The translations under genes and the position numbers were made by a program. Of a stretch of DNA of 32,000 nucleotides, positions 1 through 5,444 are shown piece after piece (positions within the stretch are counted from its first letter, which is position 1; each line of letters opens with the position of its first letter). Location: contig JBHLRO010000012.1 of the NCBI GenBank assembly GCA_048882505.1, positions 1-32,000 on the forward strand, given 5' to 3'. The notes beneath the pieces were generated by a model. That model was not told where the DNA came from. It ran no database searches and saw only the letters and a list, made by a program, of their open reading frames with translations. The stretch comes from Candidatus Thorarchaeota archaeon. GTDB taxonomy: Archaea; Asgardarchaeota; Heimdallarchaeia; Hodarchaeales; Hodarchaeaceae.

Positions 1-1352
1 ACCACACTATCAGCGGAGCTGTTGGCAAAATACTGGGTGACAACAGTCGTATCGTTAACGAGGGGTTGACTCCCAGATTGTCCTGTGAGGTCGGTGGGGC
101 GCGGTAAAACCTCGAAACTCACGACTATAAAACTAGATTCAAAATAGATATGTGAAAAGGTAACGTTGGTTGCGTAAGATCCAACAGCTTGTGAGTTTGG
201 ATTTAAACGGAACCAATAGTGGTCTCCAGTCCGATTGAGGAAATCGATATATGAATTGTTAAGAGTGATCCCCGAACCTAGTGTTAACCCCGTGATATTC
301 TCATTATAGTTGGTGTTATTGTACAAGAGAAAGAAGTCCAAATGCTCACTATGGTAGACGGTGGGATCAGATGGCAAGCCACTGTGAATAACCGTTTGGG
401 CTTTGAAAACCGTTAAATGAAAGATGAATAAAGCATCCTTATAGTTTGCCAAATTGAAGGAAATGTTAATGAGGAAGGAGCCTGTTTGATTGGGATTGAA
501 GGTCAAAGTCCAGGACAGATTGCTTTCCTTAACGGTGCCTGTGATTGGGATGAAAGCCAAAATCAGCGGTGAACTCGTATCTAAGATATTAGAGGTGAAC
601 TGATCGTAGTATTCTAAATTAATAACCACACTATCGGCGGAGCTGTTGGCAAAGTACTGGGTGACAACAGTCGTATCGTTAACGAGGGGTTGACTCCCAG
701 ACTGTCCTGTGAGGTCGGTAGGGCGCGGCAAAACCTCGAAACTCACGACAATAAAACTAGATTCAAAATAAATGTGGGCGAAAGTAATATTCGTAGAATG
801 AATCCCAAGTGGTATTGTGGTTGGACCTATACGGAACCAGTAGTAGTCTCCTGTACGATTCAGGAAACCTACTTTTGTATTATTGAGGGTAATGCCTGCT
901 CCTTCAGATAATCCTGTAATATTCTCGTTATACTCAGTATTATTATATAAGAGGAAAAAATCGAGACTCTCATTATAATAGGTAGCTGCGGACGTGCCAA
1001 TCTCTGAATAAATCGTTGTGTTAGCTTTTGTGACAGTCAAATTGAAAACAAAGGTACTACTATTATAATTGGTTAAACCAAATGTAACATTGATCAGAAA
1101 AGACCCCGTTTTGTTAGGATTGAATACAATTGTCCATGTAAGGTTAGACTCTTTCACGGGTACGTTATATGGGATTGGCGAAACAATACTTGGTGCAAGT
1201 GTATTTAATGTATCATCTGCCAATATATAATAGTAACGTAGATTAACGGAAAGATTATCGGCGGAACTGTTCGCATAGGATTTCGAAACGCCTCCAGTTA
1301 TGTTTGTTAAAGTTTGCCCGCCACTTCTTCCAGTTATGCTGGTTTCACCTGG
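1..1352 (-). repeat. Intragenic tandem repeat, period 624 bp (208 aa); two full units (1352-729, 728-105) plus the start of a third (104 to <1)
   Basis: Equivalent Pro codons at 1350-1352, 726-728 and 102-104 are exactly 624 nt apart. Shared motifs: ANSSAD, KESNLxWTxxFNPNxTGSFLIN, LDFFLLYNNTxYNENITGL, FLNRTGDxYWFR, HIYFESSFIVVSFEVLPRPT. Positions 1-146 match 625-770 with 6 mismatches. Confidence 0.95.
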
Positions 1353-3788
1353 AGTAATAATCAAGTCAAAAACTATTTCGCGAGAAACATAGTTAGGATG
1401 GGTAGCGTTGATCACAAGATTAGAATAGATTCCTTCTCCAGCATAATCTGTTGTATTCAGGCGATAATAATATACATTATTAATCTCATTGGCATTGTTT
1501 CCATCTACAGTAATCATTCCTCCTCCTATAGGCGCCCCTGAGGTATCATTATAATCTACCCGAAGCGTCGCGTTCTCACGCCATTCGAGGAGGAGATTTG
1601 TAGCATTCATGGTAAGATTTGAATTCCCAACAAATCTAATAGTTACAACGGTAGTCCAATTCACAAACCAGGAAAACTGAGTAGTAATCGTAATAGTTCC
1701 AGTGGAACCGGGTACTTCCCCATCAGTTGTAAAGGAAGAGTTGTAATACTGTCCTGAGGGTTGATTCATGCTAAAGTTCTGCTTAGAACCTTGTGGCCAG
1801 CTGGCATTTGCCCAAATCCTTGCATTTCTAATATGTGATAATGTACCTGGTGTTGAGTTGTGATTTGATGTATAATTCGCCCACAGCGTGATTTTTTCTC
1901 CAATTACTACATCCAAATTGTCACTAGAATTAATTGTTAACGTGGTGTTAATGAAAACATCGAGGTTTCGGGTAGATGTTCCCACTTTGGTTTCATCTTC
2001 GCTCATCCAGAATCCTTGCAGATCATATGTACCGTTTACATTCGTGGTTTGAGGCACTGTATTATTAATATCCCAAGAATCGATAATTGTCGGGTTTATA
2101 GAATCGAAATCTAAGTTTTTATAGATCGGTAGTCCATAATATTCAATCCAGTAACTGATATTTCCTCCTGATTCTGGAACCTCGAATTTTAAATCAATAA
2201 CATCTGTAACATTAGCTTGATAGGGAAATTGTAAATCAGCAACACCCCTAGATAGATTAAACGATAAGAGATAGTTTGGAGCCTCGAACCACACATGCCA
2301 AGTAGCGTTTTCTGCCAATGTACTCGCATTAACTACCATCGTTGTGTTGCCAAAACTGTACTTATGAGCGGGGTCGCCATCCCAAGTTACATTCGTGTTA
2401 TCTGAAAGACTAGAAAACTCGGGGACAGCTGAATCATTCCAATAAATATTGGTTCCATTCCAGTCTGTTTTAATCCCTGAAATACCTATTGAATGATTAC
2501 GTATATTATAGGTGGTATTAACCTTAGCGGTTGAAAAAGTCAGGTTCCAGGCAACGATTGAACTGTTTGAGACCAGATATGATGAGCTTGCTGAAACTGG
2601 AGATAGAGCATAGGTATAATTGGTAACAAATGACAGGTTAAATGAAACTGAGGTATTGGTTGAAAATTTATGCCATGTTGAATCATTCCATGAAAATCCA
2701 TTGAACGTATTTAATTTGGTTATACCTTCCGATGATTCATAACTAAAATCAAGTTCCGCAGGATTTGTGTAGATTTTAGCGTTATAGCTTGTTCCATTCC
2801 ATTCAACAGGCAATATTTCGAGCTGAAGCGGAAGATCACGATTGGCAAAAGTGTTCCAAGTGGAATGTGTGGCTTCTTTATAGCAAACAATGCCTTCATC
2901 GACCCCATCCCCACTTGCAGCAGAATCGTAAATATAGAACCATCTCCAAAAGTCACTATCATCGTCAGCATTCGTTTCATTCATGACTACAAAATAGGTT
3001 TGCCCGCTTTGGAGAAGAACGGGAGCATCGAATGTGTATTCATGCCAGGCTTCCCCCGTACTCCCTAAATCCTCTTTTGAGGTTATGTTGACATCATTCG
3101 GCACATTGCCGCCTGTAGCATTCGTAATATAGATCTTCCCTGTTGCTGATGCCACTCCAGCAACGTACATCCTGACTTTCTTAATATATGCAAAAGCTGT
3201 TTTTATTTGAAATGACATCGCTACCTCGAAGTAACCGTCTCCCCCTGCCAGAATATTCTGTGAATCCCACTGAAAGGCAAAATTATAATTTGTAGTGTCT
3301 TCGATGTTGGTTTTGTTATATTCTGCTTCAACATCATTGATATCGAATACACCGTATTGTCTATTGTAGCCCGTGGAATTCGTCACCGTAAGAGAATCAC
3401 TATTGCTTGTCGGTTTCCCCGAAACGTAAGAATTTGAGGTGTTCATCATCTCTTCTCCCGTCCAATTGAAAGAATCATAAACGGAGAAACTCCCTCCGCC
3501 TGGCCCTGTTTGCTGGCCAATGGCTAAAGGGAGCAGGGAACGATCTTCAGGAAGATTTTCAACAAGGATAGATTTGGAATCACTCGCAGATTCCGTTATT
3601 AACCTTGGTACTTTAATCCTATTAATTGATCCTTTTAAAGAGTTGATTCCCACCTCATCCTCCCAGAAAGAGCCTTCAGGATCAAAGGGCTGTGGTAACA
3701 AAGTAGGAACAGAGCTAATCAGAAGAACAAAAATCACTAATGTTCCAAAAACAGTCGCCTTTTCTTGACCACGATTCCAAAGTCTCAT
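1..3788 (-). CDS. Giant secreted/cell-surface glycoprotein (S-layer/adhesin-like, multiple beta-sandwich domains); 3' end runs off the window
   Basis: Hand translation: ATG at 3788 (in-frame TGA just upstream at 3801-3803), then an open frame to position 1 (about 1262 codons). N-terminus MRLWNRGQEKATVFGTLVIFVLLISSVP is a basic stretch plus hydrophobic helix (signal peptide/anchor). The body is Asn/Thr/Ser-rich and beta-type with very many N-x-S/T sequons. Absent from the supplied ORF track because no stop codon lies inside the window. Confidence 0.9.
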   Translation of the reverse strand, partial: MRLWNRGQEKATVFGTLVIFVLLISSVPTLLPQPFDPEGSFWEDEVGINSLKGSINRIKVPRLITESASDSKSILVENLPEDRSLLPLAIGQQTGPGGGSFSVYDSFNWTGEEMMNTSNSYVSGKPTSNSDSLTVTNSTGYNRQYGVFDINDVEAEYNKTNIEDTTNYNFAFQWDSQNILAGGDGYFEVAMSFQIKTAFAYIKKVRMYVAGVASATGKIYITNATGGNVPNDVNITSKEDLGSTGEAWHEYTFDAPVLLQSGQTYFVVMNETNADDDSDFWRWFYIYDSAASGDGVDEGIVCYKEATHSTWNTFANRDLPLQLEILPVEWNGTSYNAKIYTNPAELDFSYESSEGITKLNTFNGFSWNDSTWHKFSTNTSVSFNLSFVTNYTYALSPVSASSSYLVSNSSIVAWNLTFSTAKVNTTYNIRNHSIGISGIKTDWNGTNIYWNDSAVPEFSSLSDNTNVTWDGDPAHKYSFGNTTMVVNASTLAENATWHVWFEAPNYLLSFNLSRGVADLQFPYQANVTDVIDLKFEVPESGGNISYWIEYYGLPIYKNLDFDSINPTIIDSWDINNTVPQTTNVNGTYDLQGFWMSEDETKVGTSTRNLDVFINTTLTINSSDNLDVVIGEKITLWANYTSNHNSTPGTLSHIRNARIWANASWPQGSKQNFSMNQPSGQYYNSSFTTDGEVPGSTGTITITTQFSWFVNWTTVVTIRFVGNSNLTMNATNLLLEWRENATLRVDYNDTSGAPIGGGMITVDGNNANEINNVYYYRLNTTDYAGEGIYSNLVINATHPNYVSREIVFDLIITPGETSITGRSGGQTLTNITGGVSKSYANSSADNLSVNLRYYYILADDTLNTLAPSIVSPIPYNVPVKESNLTWTIVFNPNKTGSFLINVTFGLTNYNSSTFVFNLTVTKANTTIYSEIGTSAATYYNESLDFFLLYNNTEYNENITGLSEGAGITLNNTKVGFLNRTGDYYWFRIGPTTIPLGIHSTNITFAHIYFESSFIVVSFEVLPRPTDLTGQSGSQPLVNDTTVVTQYFANSSADSVVINLEYYDQFTSNILDTSSPLILAFIPITGTVKESNLSWTLTFNPNQTGSFLINISFNLANYKDALFIFHLTVFKAQTVIHSGLPSDPTVYHSEHLDFFLLYNNTNYNENITGLTLGSGITLNNSYIDFLNRTGDHYWFRLNPNSQAVGSYATNVTFSHIYFESSFIVVSFEVLPRPTDLTGQSGSQPLVNDTTVVTQYFANSSADSV

Positions 3789-3923
3789 AATGATCCTACA
3801 TCAACGAGGGGGGTTTTTGGCAAATTCAATTTATCTAGTATCCTCAGAAAAGCACGATAGAAATTGTATAGAGTTGGTAAACAATTGGTGTTTGCCCAGG
3901 ATGATACTGTTGAGGTTGTAATA

Positions 3924-4042
3924 CCATTCGCGAATATTCGTGAATGGCCTAATTTTTCAAGCGAATATTCGTTAGTTTAACACGACATAGGGGTCATTCT
4001 TGAACATAGTACTGGTAGTTTGAGCGAGACCGCGAATATTGC
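3924..4042. promoter_or_regulatory. Cluster of palindromic CGAATATTCG-type sites upstream of the surface-protein gene (candidate operator array)
   Basis: 24-bp near-perfect palindrome CCATTCGCGAATATTCGTGAATGG at 3924-3947, a perfect CGAATATTCG at 3962-3971, and CGAATATTGC at 4033-4042. A TATA-like TTATAAAA lies at 4072-4079. Function is inferred. Confidence 0.45.
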
Positions 4043-4322
4043 CTTCTTGAGGTAAGAGATATTGGACTGTATTATAAAATTGGGGTTATTCCAGAATGAT
4101 CTGGGTAACATTCTGAGGGAAGACCAAAAGGGAGAATTGTAGTAGATCAGTTAATCAGAATTTTAGGGCAAGGAATTTTCATATATCAGGAAGAATAAAA
4201 GGAAATAGAGTCGGAAAAGCCCCTGCTTCTTCTGATCCTTATTAAATGACCAAATATCTGAATAGAATAGATAAACAAGAGAATGAACTTTCGAAGCATA
4301 ACTTTTGTACTGGAAAGGAAAA

Positions 4323-5444
4323 TTAAACCTCCGTAAACATGAACGGTTCTAGGCTTGGAAGGGGTTCCCCCAACGTCACTTCCTCAGGATTCAAAAAGTA
4401 TGCTACTGCGGAGGTCGAGCTCAATAAAGAGTTTCCATCCTGGGGGGTATACGAATAACCTATGATTTCAACGCTATCGGTGAATAAACGGCTCTTCCGT
4501 ACCACTAATGAGGGGAGGACGATCACTGCCTGGTTTAAGATCCGTCCATAATGTCCATACTCACGACCAAAGCTAAAGATGACATTTGCATCAGTTTTAT
4601 AAGTTACTGCCACATAAGGATCCTTGATGAAGCGTTCTTTGACATCGTCCAAAGATGGCGCGCTATCCTTTTCCAAAACCAAGTGAAATGATGAAACGTG
4701 CATGTATTGCGTATTAAGCTTGATTGCGCTAGAGAAAACGTTGAGATGGTATCCGAGCGTACTATATAATCTATACACATCCTTGGCATGATGGGTGCCA
4801 AATGTCGGATCTTTGTGCTGTCCAACCGAGGGGGCAGGAATAAATGACCCATTTTGCGAAACATCGCTTGCCCTCCGCATAAAAACAAACCGCGCTTCTC
4901 CTAGGATACTTCGATCCTTTTCATCACCATTTTCTTCAAAAGCTAAATCCTTAAGGATCCTCGCGGCCGCATGCGTGTTACAGCTGACAACCTGGATAAA
5001 CTTTGAATTTTTCCTACCTAACACTTCATCGTTAAGACCTACTCCATACGGAAGGCCAAATCCAGCCTCACTGCCTTGGGCCAGGAACGCACGGACATTA
5101 TTCCCGTTTTCATAGTGCATGATTTTATTTTTAACTCCCATTCCTTCGGCTGTACAATCAACCACAACTTTAGCCCTAGCTAAGGCATCTTGGAAGGTAT
5201 ATGTTGGTTCGACTCCAATCGCGCGGAAATCGTTAGCCCTGTCTTGACGCACACACATGTGGGCTCCCCGCGATAAAAGCCCTTTAATCATGGGACGATC
5301 AGTAACCCTGGGCGTATGCTTATAAAATATCAATTCGTCAATGCCCAGTTGCTTTGCGATATGTTTATCGGCCAATAGTCCAGTTAATGGCTCTCCTATG
5401 GTTCCAGTCCCCACAACAAGAACTGTATTCTCCTTAACCGCCAT
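4323..5444 (-). CDS. gap: Class II (archaeal-type) glyceraldehyde-3-phosphate dehydrogenase homologue, divergent
   Basis: Rossmann motif VVGTGTIG, then VVDCT, catalytic VVSCNT, RRASD, THHAKDV and QYMHV. These match archaeal class II GAPDH motifs (GxGTIG, SCNT, RRAxD, SHHxxDV, TLMH). Confidence 0.82.
   Translation of the reverse strand: MAVKENTVLVVGTGTIGEPLTGLLADKHIAKQLGIDELIFYKHTPRVTDRPMIKGLLSRGAHMCVRQDRANDFRAIGVEPTYTFQDALARAKVVVDCTAEGMGVKNKIMHYENGNNVRAFLAQGSEAGFGLPYGVGLNDEVLGRKNSKFIQVVSCNTHAAARILKDLAFEENGDEKDRSILGEARFVFMRRASDVSQNGSFIPAPSVGQHKDPTFGTHHAKDVYRLYSTLGYHLNVFSSAIKLNTQYMHVSSFHLVLEKDSAPSLDDVKERFIKDPYVAVTYKTDANVIFSFGREYGHYGRILNQAVIVLPSLVVRKSRLFTDSVEIIGYSYTPQDGNSLLSSTSAVAYFLNPEEVTLGEPLPSLEPFMFTEV

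Follow-up and report, generated by a model that had tools for sequence, protein, structure and literature searches.

Adhesins of giant size built from repeats are already known, as are surface glycoproteins of archaea. Giant bacterial adhesins, such as those with the immunoglobulin-like (Ig-like) "extender" (6xi3) and the grappling-hook protein GhpA, project a distal binding domain on a string of Ig-like domains, and archaeal surface-layer (S-layer) glycoproteins such as Haloferax Csg, Sulfolobus SlaA/SlaB and the Asgard tetrameric S-layer protein are N-glycosylated, beta-rich and outward-facing. The variable distal domain of Myxococcus TraA is lectin-like. In TraA and in Dictyostelium TgrB1/TgrC1 the variable part decides specificity, and the Tgr proteins are a tandem pair of Ig-like single-pass glycoproteins (PMC13184517, PMC4404348). 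We analysed the first 32 kb (the window) of contig C12 (JBHLRO010000012.1) of an archaeal genome of 4.3 Mb in 83 contigs (G000). At the very start of the window lies a large fragment of a gene, here called gene A, and we think it somewhat better than an even chance that its product is a giant single-pass membrane glycoprotein that serves as a long-reach surface adhesin or receptor.

The gene A product shares with the giant bacterial adhesins an Ig-like string that carries a candidate binding domain at its distal end, a large size and a tandem stalk whose repeat number varies between strains (2.3 copies of a 208-residue unit in the fragment and 13–14 in its closest ortholog), the roles of the gene A domains being predicted ones. 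It has no sequence similarity to those adhesins, however, is archaeal and N-glycosylatable, and, to judge from its ortholog, ends in a membrane helix and a cytoplasmic domain where the bacterial proteins have a type I secretion retention module or a cell-wall anchor. Its likeness to TraA and TgrB1/TgrC1 lies in a variable distal domain on a conserved stalk. The membrane-distal heads of gene A and its tandem neighbor, gene B, vary between genomes and are matched within the pair, and these adjacent genes for single-pass Ig-like glycoproteins with co-varying variable parts have the arrangement of a tandem recognition pair, although A and B are not homologous to TraA or Tgr. With the archaeal S-layer proteins gene A shares its beta-rich, outward-facing and (by prediction) N-glycosylated character as well as weak fold matches (SlaA/SlaB 8qox_B, Z 10.0; the in-situ pentameric S-layer protein 7ptp_A, Z 8.8), but Pfam and NCBIfam show no S-layer domain or PGF-CTERM or SlaB-type anchor in it, and proteins of its family have cytoplasmic domains, several paralogs per genome and a variable repeat number. 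Finally, gene A resembles a set of longin-tailed Asgard surface glycoproteins, represented in this genome by gene B and a paralog on contig C5, in its homologous, sequon-rich ectodomain, its N-terminal hydrophobic helix, its single-pass topology (via the ortholog) and its Hodarchaeales range; it differs from them in that its ortholog ends in a membrane helix, a Pro/Ser linker and a domain of about 95 amino acids (aa), and in a much longer stalk of 208-aa units. A literature search on membrane-anchored longin receptors, Hodarchaeales surface glycoproteins, gelsolin-linked surface clusters and Asgard allorecognition found no description of the gene A/B family, and we found none published for gene A as a giant form with a tail of its own, for the cluster of A, B, gene C and a gelsolin gene, or for the matched lineage-specific heads.

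Gene A is a continuous open reading frame (ORF) at 3..3788 on the - strand, with 1262 codons and no stop, and its 3' end is open, running off base 1 of the contig. It is missing from the closed-ORF track because the frame is open at the contig start. A first-pass annotation of these letters had proposed just such a frame of more than 1262 aa that the track had missed, to be abandoned if a stop or frameshift broke it; there is none within the 1262 codons. Gene A DNA is present in metagenomes from two studies; the data sets listed for it include no RNA, which speaks neither for nor against expression. Public contigs of the source sample are shattered into pieces of 80–300 nt across bases 1–857, a raw-read run contained none from this organism, and neither gave a repeat copy number.

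The frame carries 68 sequons of the form N-x(not P)-S/T, or one in every 18.6 residues, in good agreement with the more than 60 (about 1 per 20 residues) counted by hand in the first-pass annotation. Composition-preserving shuffles (1000) of gene A gave 26.4 ± 4.3 sequons with a maximum of 40. Of all 1722 open frames in the genome with 300 aa or more it has the highest density, 5.37 per 100 aa, the median being 0.46 and the 99th percentile 2.96 per 100 aa. None of the sequons lies in aa 1–100, and 29 lie in aa 400–800. In eight relatives the ectodomains have 4.4–5.5 sequons per 100 aa versus 0–0.4 in the cytoplasmic tails. The genome has one gene for an AglB/STT3 oligosaccharyltransferase (C24:12893-14074, E 5.7e-49, in a 723-aa frame). 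Both features expected for AglB substrates, a sequon-rich extracellular side and an AglB gene, are thus present at the level of sequence, and the gene A product is a predicted N-glycoprotein. Further giant sequon-dense frames (3.8–5.2 per 100 aa) are found in the same genome on C10 (1717 aa, - strand), on C3 at 262035 (1285 aa) and on C26 at 5814 (1724 aa); they are unrelated to gene A by tblastn and probably encode more surface glycoproteins.

Among 5.8 billion proteins searched we found 18 relatives of gene A, every one of them unnamed or "hypothetical". Those with a named source come from metagenome-assembled genomes (MAGs) of Hodarchaeales, Hodarchaeota, Heimdallarchaeota and Kariarchaeaceae, with one labelled Thorarchaeota, and the taxonomic range is so far confined to Asgard MAGs. 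The genome itself carries archaeal small-subunit rRNA, gelsolin, many longin-like proteins and a fusion of a longin domain with a Rag/Arf-like GTPase, in addition to AglB/STT3. By these sequence markers the host is a Heimdallarchaeia/Hodarchaeales-like Asgard archaeon, and the earlier guess of an Asgard-like host was right.

An AlphaFold2 model of the ectodomain (residues 36–1230, from an 18-row alignment, with a mean predicted local distance difference test score (pLDDT) of 66) is entirely beta, a string of about 12 sandwiches, and exhaustive structural alignment with VIA-align resolved single domains within it. The head (model residues 84–304, protein residues ~120–340) matches a baseplate chain of phage phi812 (9euf_0; Z 12.8, root-mean-square deviation (rmsd) 3.2, 148 residues aligned, 19% identity) and the lectin-like domain of Clostridioides Cwp84 (4ci7_A; Z 12.1, rmsd 4.1, 154 aligned). 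The head is therefore predicted to have a lectin-like fold, matches at Z 10–13 indicating a shared fold and not a function. Single sandwiches at model residues 469–579 and 580–687 match the Wzt carbohydrate-binding domain (CBD), filamin, PKD and MG4 macroglobulin domains at Z 9–10, and mannanase and GH2 Ig-like domains are also among the sandwich matches, which with Cwp84 and the Wzt CBD fall at Z 9–12. The likeness to filamin repeats is at the level of fold (Z 9.1–9.6); the filamin/ABP280 repeat family PF00630 reached 18.7 bits (E 0.0031) against a gathering cut-off of 26.9, with no stretch passing alone. The whole ectodomain model gave only generic tandem Ig-like matches in Foldseek (TM ~0.1; hydin, titin, GhpA and alpha-2-macroglobulin), and a shape search of the ESM Atlas with it gave only generic archaeal Ig-repeat clusters (TM 0.2–0.4). 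Pfam and NCBIfam have no family above threshold for gene A or for either in-genome paralog, and searching PDB sequences with profiles of the ectodomain, the tail and gene C produced chance matches only, for example to haemagglutinin and coiled coils. The statement that no named family is recognisable for most of the protein thus stands, and the finding that was to overturn the earlier view, a full-length match to an S-layer or adhesin family, did not turn up in Pfam, NCBIfam or PDB sequences.

That earlier view had also held that a signal or anchor helix and a unique N-terminal part of about 800 aa are followed by stacked repeated beta units, and this is what we find. The hydrophobic helix is at aa 13–31 and recurs in nearly all gene A relatives, and the 208-aa units begin at about aa 773 (Table 1). 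The repeat period of 208 aa corresponds to 624 nt, DNA positions 1–352 are 79% identical to positions 625–976, and the identity between neighboring copies climbs from 38% to 90% from the start to the end of the unit.

The probable nature of the missing end comes from orthologs in other genomes of the genus. The closest, on contig C3 of genome G280, is 67% identical to gene A over all 1262 residues; it is a 4144-aa frame with no stops and 209 sequons, and its copies of the 208-aa unit are 63–80% identical to copy 2 of gene A. After the repeats it has a further beta region, a transmembrane helix, the sequence KVNRRRKK, a Pro/Ser-rich linker and the C-terminal domain of ~95 aa, which looks by eye like a winged helix. 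Three more genomes (G136, G115 and G301) have gene A orthologs of 2975, 3220 and at least 2015 aa (the last a cut copy) with the same C-terminal ending. Full gene A is probably far longer than 1262 aa, and by ortholog and synteny what is missing would be further 208-residue units followed by a beta region of another kind, a single membrane helix and a cytoplasmic domain of ~95 residues. Of the first-pass description of a "secreted" protein the predicted surface location stands, and simple secretion probably does not, since the ortholog and both in-genome paralogs end with a membrane helix and a cytoplasmic domain. Searches of gene A's own genome with the paralog C-termini, the ortholog's last 682 aa and a hidden Markov model (HMM) of the gene A tail did not find the bulk of its C-terminal end. 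Its last 10 codons are probably present: bases 1–35 of contig C33 encode ..SILSSESDSL*, with 76–82% nt identity to the ortholog end and gene B start. Because the C33 start aligns with the end of the ortholog's gene A and the flanking glyceraldehyde-3-phosphate dehydrogenase (GAPDH)-like gene is 95% identical and syntenic between G000 and G280, C12 and C33 appear to be neighbors, the assembly having broken inside the repeats and left the rest of gene A in the gap; for the repeat count and anchor that the first-pass annotation had wished to obtain by extending the contig, the orthologs serve as the guide.

The orthologs' tails are distinct from those of the longin-tailed proteins. A longin and winged-helix tail is absent from all four gene A orthologs, gene A's own C-terminus being outside the assembly: the tail HMM has no match in the gene A tails of G280, G136, G115 and G301, versus E 1e-95 to 1e-103 for the adjacent gene B copies, hhalign of an ortholog tail against the longin tail profile gave a probability of 0.1, and Pfam had no hit in the last 682 aa of the G280 protein. 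In the G301 ortholog (L044:3-6050, G301:C33) the small tail domain occurs twice in tandem, at aa 1812–1906 and 1916–2014.

Gene B (C33:78-4697, 1539 aa) and the C5 paralog (C5:105132-109775, 1547 aa) are respectively 52% and 37% identical to gene A over ~1100 aa, and in a 13-row alignment (A1) many Trp, Tyr and Asn columns are invariant. A single membrane helix, placed ~255 aa ahead of the C-terminus, is common to these two paralogs and to all relatives of full length, and the cytoplasmic tails have a mean column identity of 68% versus 41% for the whole protein. A model of the gene B tail (pLDDT 64) has a juxtamembrane helix, a longin fold of beta-beta-alpha-beta-beta-beta-alpha order and a winged helix (Z 6–7). 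The fold matches synbindin (2zmv_A, Z 10.3) and a Lokiarchaeota longin (8yqg_B, Z 10.2), and also Sedlin, Sec22 and VAMP7; Foldseek matched it to sigma-adaptins, zeta-COP and MglB at E 2e-4 to 1e-3. A profile of the tail matched 141 representative clusters (59 with E values under 1e-10), in which the tail is almost always at the extreme C-terminus, directly behind the membrane helix of proteins with ectodomains of 200 to 3300 aa; where a cluster has a named source, this is a Hodarchaeota, Heimdallarchaeota or Kariarchaeaceae MAG, and the longin tail occurs in 18 of the 20 genomes sampled from the genus. A divergent longin-type tail (G214:C5:1499-2209, E 5e-65) ends a frame listed as 6884 aa, which may be a still larger family member. 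In G000 similar modules also occur elsewhere: at the N-terminus of a 488-aa protein (L030, G000:C6:52310-53773, - strand; E 5.5e-9 to the broadened tail profile), fused to a Gtr1/RagA-Arf-like small GTPase domain (PF04670, E 9e-18); behind a HerA-type ATPase, with a winged helix (L025, G000:C30:21973-24645); and at the C-terminus of a major facilitator superfamily transporter (L034, G000:C1:178315-180177). In this genome the longin-like module looks like a mobile cytoplasmic module.

We compared the heads (aa 90–340) of four A/B pairs from four genomes of one genus, which are different species. Within a genome the A and B heads have identities of 0.82, 0.81, 0.66 and 0.86, versus 0.26–0.47 for orthologous heads of different genomes. 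In the membrane-proximal domains the order is reversed, with 76% identity for A-A, 74% for B-B and 51% for A-B comparisons. Between G000 and G280, where the background is 96% aa identity in the flank, 92% in gene C and 95% in the B tail with a synonymous divergence (dS) of 0.5–0.6, the A and B ectodomains rise from 41–52% identity in the first 400 residues to 72–87% near the membrane. A maximum likelihood tree of the heads pairs A and B by genome in all four cases (support 99–100). For the proximal domains the tree groups the sequences of G000 and G280 by gene (an A clade, including G115's A, at 100/99 and a B clade at 95/96) but shows no such sorting for the G136 sequences or for gene B of G115 and G301. 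As a control, the head of the unlinked third paralog, on C5, is 82% identical between G000 and G280 and is not hypervariable. Between the A and B heads of one genome synonymous sites are saturated (pS 0.61–0.77) and the nonsynonymous divergence (dN) is 0.10, which suggests that the head match is old and has been kept by purifying selection; these estimates are rough, since the sequence is saturated and Asn-rich and comes from four pairs of related genomes. The simplest reading of these comparisons is that each lineage has an old head type on both genes, kept alike by selection. Recent gene conversion as the source of the matched heads is ruled out by the saturation of synonymous sites when set against the genome-to-genome dS.

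Genes A and B belong to a conserved cluster. The order A, B, C, gelsolin is found in G000, G280, G136 and G115, and in G301, examined from A to C, the order is A, B, C; A and B are 80–400 nt apart in the four genomes other than G000. Gene C (~310 aa), whose product is a conserved cytoplasmic protein without a match in Pfam and of no known family, stands directly after close longin tails in at least 15 genomes of the genus. An FDDxxGP motif is invariant in it, and its C-terminal part is a coiled coil. A "GP motif" of the longins of the FLCN/SMCR8/NPRL2 GTPase-activating proteins is reported in Heimdallarchaeia too (PMC12290439), and the gene C motif recalls it; this is a lead only, as neither Pfam nor the Atlas confirms gene C as a longin. 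Pfam found no FLCN/NPR2-type longin in two in-genome relatives of the gene C central domain, and the Atlas gave a weak NPR2 lead (0.75). Prediction of a complex between the gene B tail and gene C scored 0.01, which gives no answer either way. Fourth in the row, in four genomes, is a gene for a gelsolin-domain protein (PF00626, E about 1e-23); in G000 it lies two genes downstream of B (C33, L010:5913-7073, E 9e-23). The neighbors of the third paralog on C5 have none in common with the C33 locus. In G000 (L010:4667-5632, C33) and in G280 (L041:18180-19145) the conserved N-terminus of gene C (..YRFWLINDQGFYI..) is found ~45 codons ahead of the first ATG/GTG/TTG of its frame. In both, that open frame and the end of gene B overlap, and three other genomes have an ATG at the conserved N-terminus; an unusual start codon or translational coupling may be responsible.

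If gene A encodes a long-reach adhesin or receptor, as we favor, its tandem Ig-like glycosylated stalk would project the lectin-like head away from the membrane. If each Ig-like sandwich spans ~4 nm, the stalk would reach tens of nm to about 100 nm. The head would bind a ligand, either carbohydrate or protein, that is presented by another cell or by a surface and that would differ between lineages. Since the heads are alike within a genome and divergent between genomes, A and B probably recognise the same ligand, or each other. A link from head binding to longin, GTPase or actin machinery is speculation, and we think it improbable that the matched pair marks cells of the "same type", or a specific syntrophic partner, and signals through the longin platform, gene C and gelsolin to small-GTPase/actin protrusions. 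Several points weigh against the adhesin or receptor itself. The anchor and tail of gene A are deduced from one ortholog of 67% identity and three more distant ones; both AlphaFold2 models are of middling confidence (pLDDT 66 for the ectodomain and 64 for the gene B tail, from alignments of 18 and 11 rows); the cluster evidence is all from one genus, so the synteny may be simply inherited; and the gene A ortholog has no longin tail, so any signalling would have to run via gene B or the small tail domain.

The A and B heads might instead bind each other, or like heads on a neighboring cell, as a self or kin recognition pair by which same-type cells adhere or fuse protrusions, with a signal passing via the B longin tail, gene C and gelsolin to actin, like Myxococcus TraA or Dictyostelium TgrB1/TgrC1. 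Heads matched within and diverged between genomes on stalks that follow gene identity, an old match under purifying selection without recent conversion, an unlinked paralog whose head is not hypervariable, and tandem genes followed by gelsolin are all in keeping with this idea. A shared external ligand explains matched heads equally well, however, and with only four A/B pairs, from different species of one genus, and rough dS values on saturated, Asn-rich sequence, we consider recognition of self or kin unlikely. It is a shade less likely still that gene A forms a passive coat, a bulk glycocalyx or S-layer-like envelope without a specific ligand, and that the tip owes its variation solely to viruses that bind it as their receptor. 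The extreme sequon density, the long repetitive stalk, the other giant sequon-rich frames of the genome and a fast-evolving distal part, as expected of a virus target, would all fit such a coat, as would the many surface densities of Asgard cells (PMC9834061) and the N-glycosylated S-layer of Hodarchaeales isolates (10.1101/2025.02.26.640444). But the S-layer proteins of Hodarchaeales, compared here by description only, are said to be homotetramers around a central pore (10.1101/2025.02.26.640444), unlike single-pass giants that have cytoplasmic domains, a virus arms race by itself leaves unexplained an A/B head match held by purifying selection without recent conversion, and the conservation of the tails relative to the whole protein argues for an intracellular partner.

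Capture of substrate, in which the head and Ig-like domains would bind polysaccharide or glycoprotein particles for feeding like the carbohydrate-binding modules of large bacterial surface enzymes, seems to us quite improbable. The head and several sandwiches do resemble accessory domains of carbohydrate-binding proteins and glycosidases (the Cwp84, Wzt CBD, mannanase and GH2 matches above), but no catalytic domain was found in the 1262 aa of gene A or the 4144 aa of its ortholog, the neighbors are not sugar-use genes, and cultured Hodarchaeales are reported to be peptide degraders (10.1101/2025.02.26.640444). That gene A is not a working gene at all but a chance frame, assembly chimera or decaying pseudogene is hardly credible: the contig end does cut it inside repeats where public contigs are fragmented, but it has 1262 codons without a stop, intact frames of 1438 to 4144 aa in many genomes, conserved synteny, strong purifying selection on its conserved parts, and a recurrence of its DNA in the metagenomes from two studies.

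Surface contacts made by actin-filled protrusions are thought to have brought Asgard archaea and the ancestor of mitochondria together, and the molecules on Asgard surfaces are almost unknown. The locus offers a candidate that can be tested in culture, a giant glycoprotein pair with matched lineage-specific lectin-like tips, one with a eukaryote-type longin fold, beside a gelsolin gene; a signalling A/B pair, if real, would represent an archaeal precursor of the way in which adhesion receptors of eukaryotes are coupled to the cytoskeleton. Even if gene A encodes a mere long adhesin, its family, so far confined to Asgard MAGs (nearly all Hodarchaeales/Heimdallarchaeota-type), has no database annotation, "hypothetical" fragments at contig ends in such MAGs conceal genes of 3000 to 4000 codons, and two contigs of this assembly, C12 and C33, are placed as neighbors.

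Table 1. Parts of gene A, with window positions and the basis of each assignment.
Feature	Position	Strand	Basis
ATG start codon	3786..3788	-	First start after the upstream stop; N-terminus aligns with orthologs and paralogs from residue 4–5 on
N-terminal hydrophobic helix (aa 13–31), Sec signal peptide or uncleaved signal anchor	3696..3752	-	Kyte-Doolittle 2.39 over 19 residues
Linker (aa 32–91), poorly conserved, probably disordered	3516..3695	-	pLDDT 24–49 (model residues 1–56); A-vs-B identity 23–42%
Membrane-distal head (aa 92–340), predicted lectin-like beta jelly roll	2769..3515	-	VIA-align fold matches; identities, trees, dN/dS
Non-repeated middle (aa 341–772), about five predicted Ig/FN3/PKD/filamin-like beta sandwiches	1473..2768	-	All-beta model; VIA Z 9–10
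208-aa unit, copy 1 (aa ~773–982), two predicted beta sandwiches	843..1472	-	Self-BLASTP of segments; strand pattern in model
208-aa unit, copy 2 (aa 983–1190)	219..842	-	Self-comparison of protein and DNA
208-aa unit, copy 3 (aa 1191–1262), cut by contig end	3..218	-	90% identical to aa 994–1054

Upstream of gene A is an intergenic region of 534 nt (3789-4322) with repeated CGAATATTCG-type palindromes. The GAPDH-like flanking gene follows at 4323-5444 (- strand) and is the counterpart of the gene upstream of gene A in G280; its 373-aa product has no Pfam hit, and its Atlas feature score to type II glyceraldehyde-3-phosphate dehydrogenase-like clusters is 0.96–0.98.

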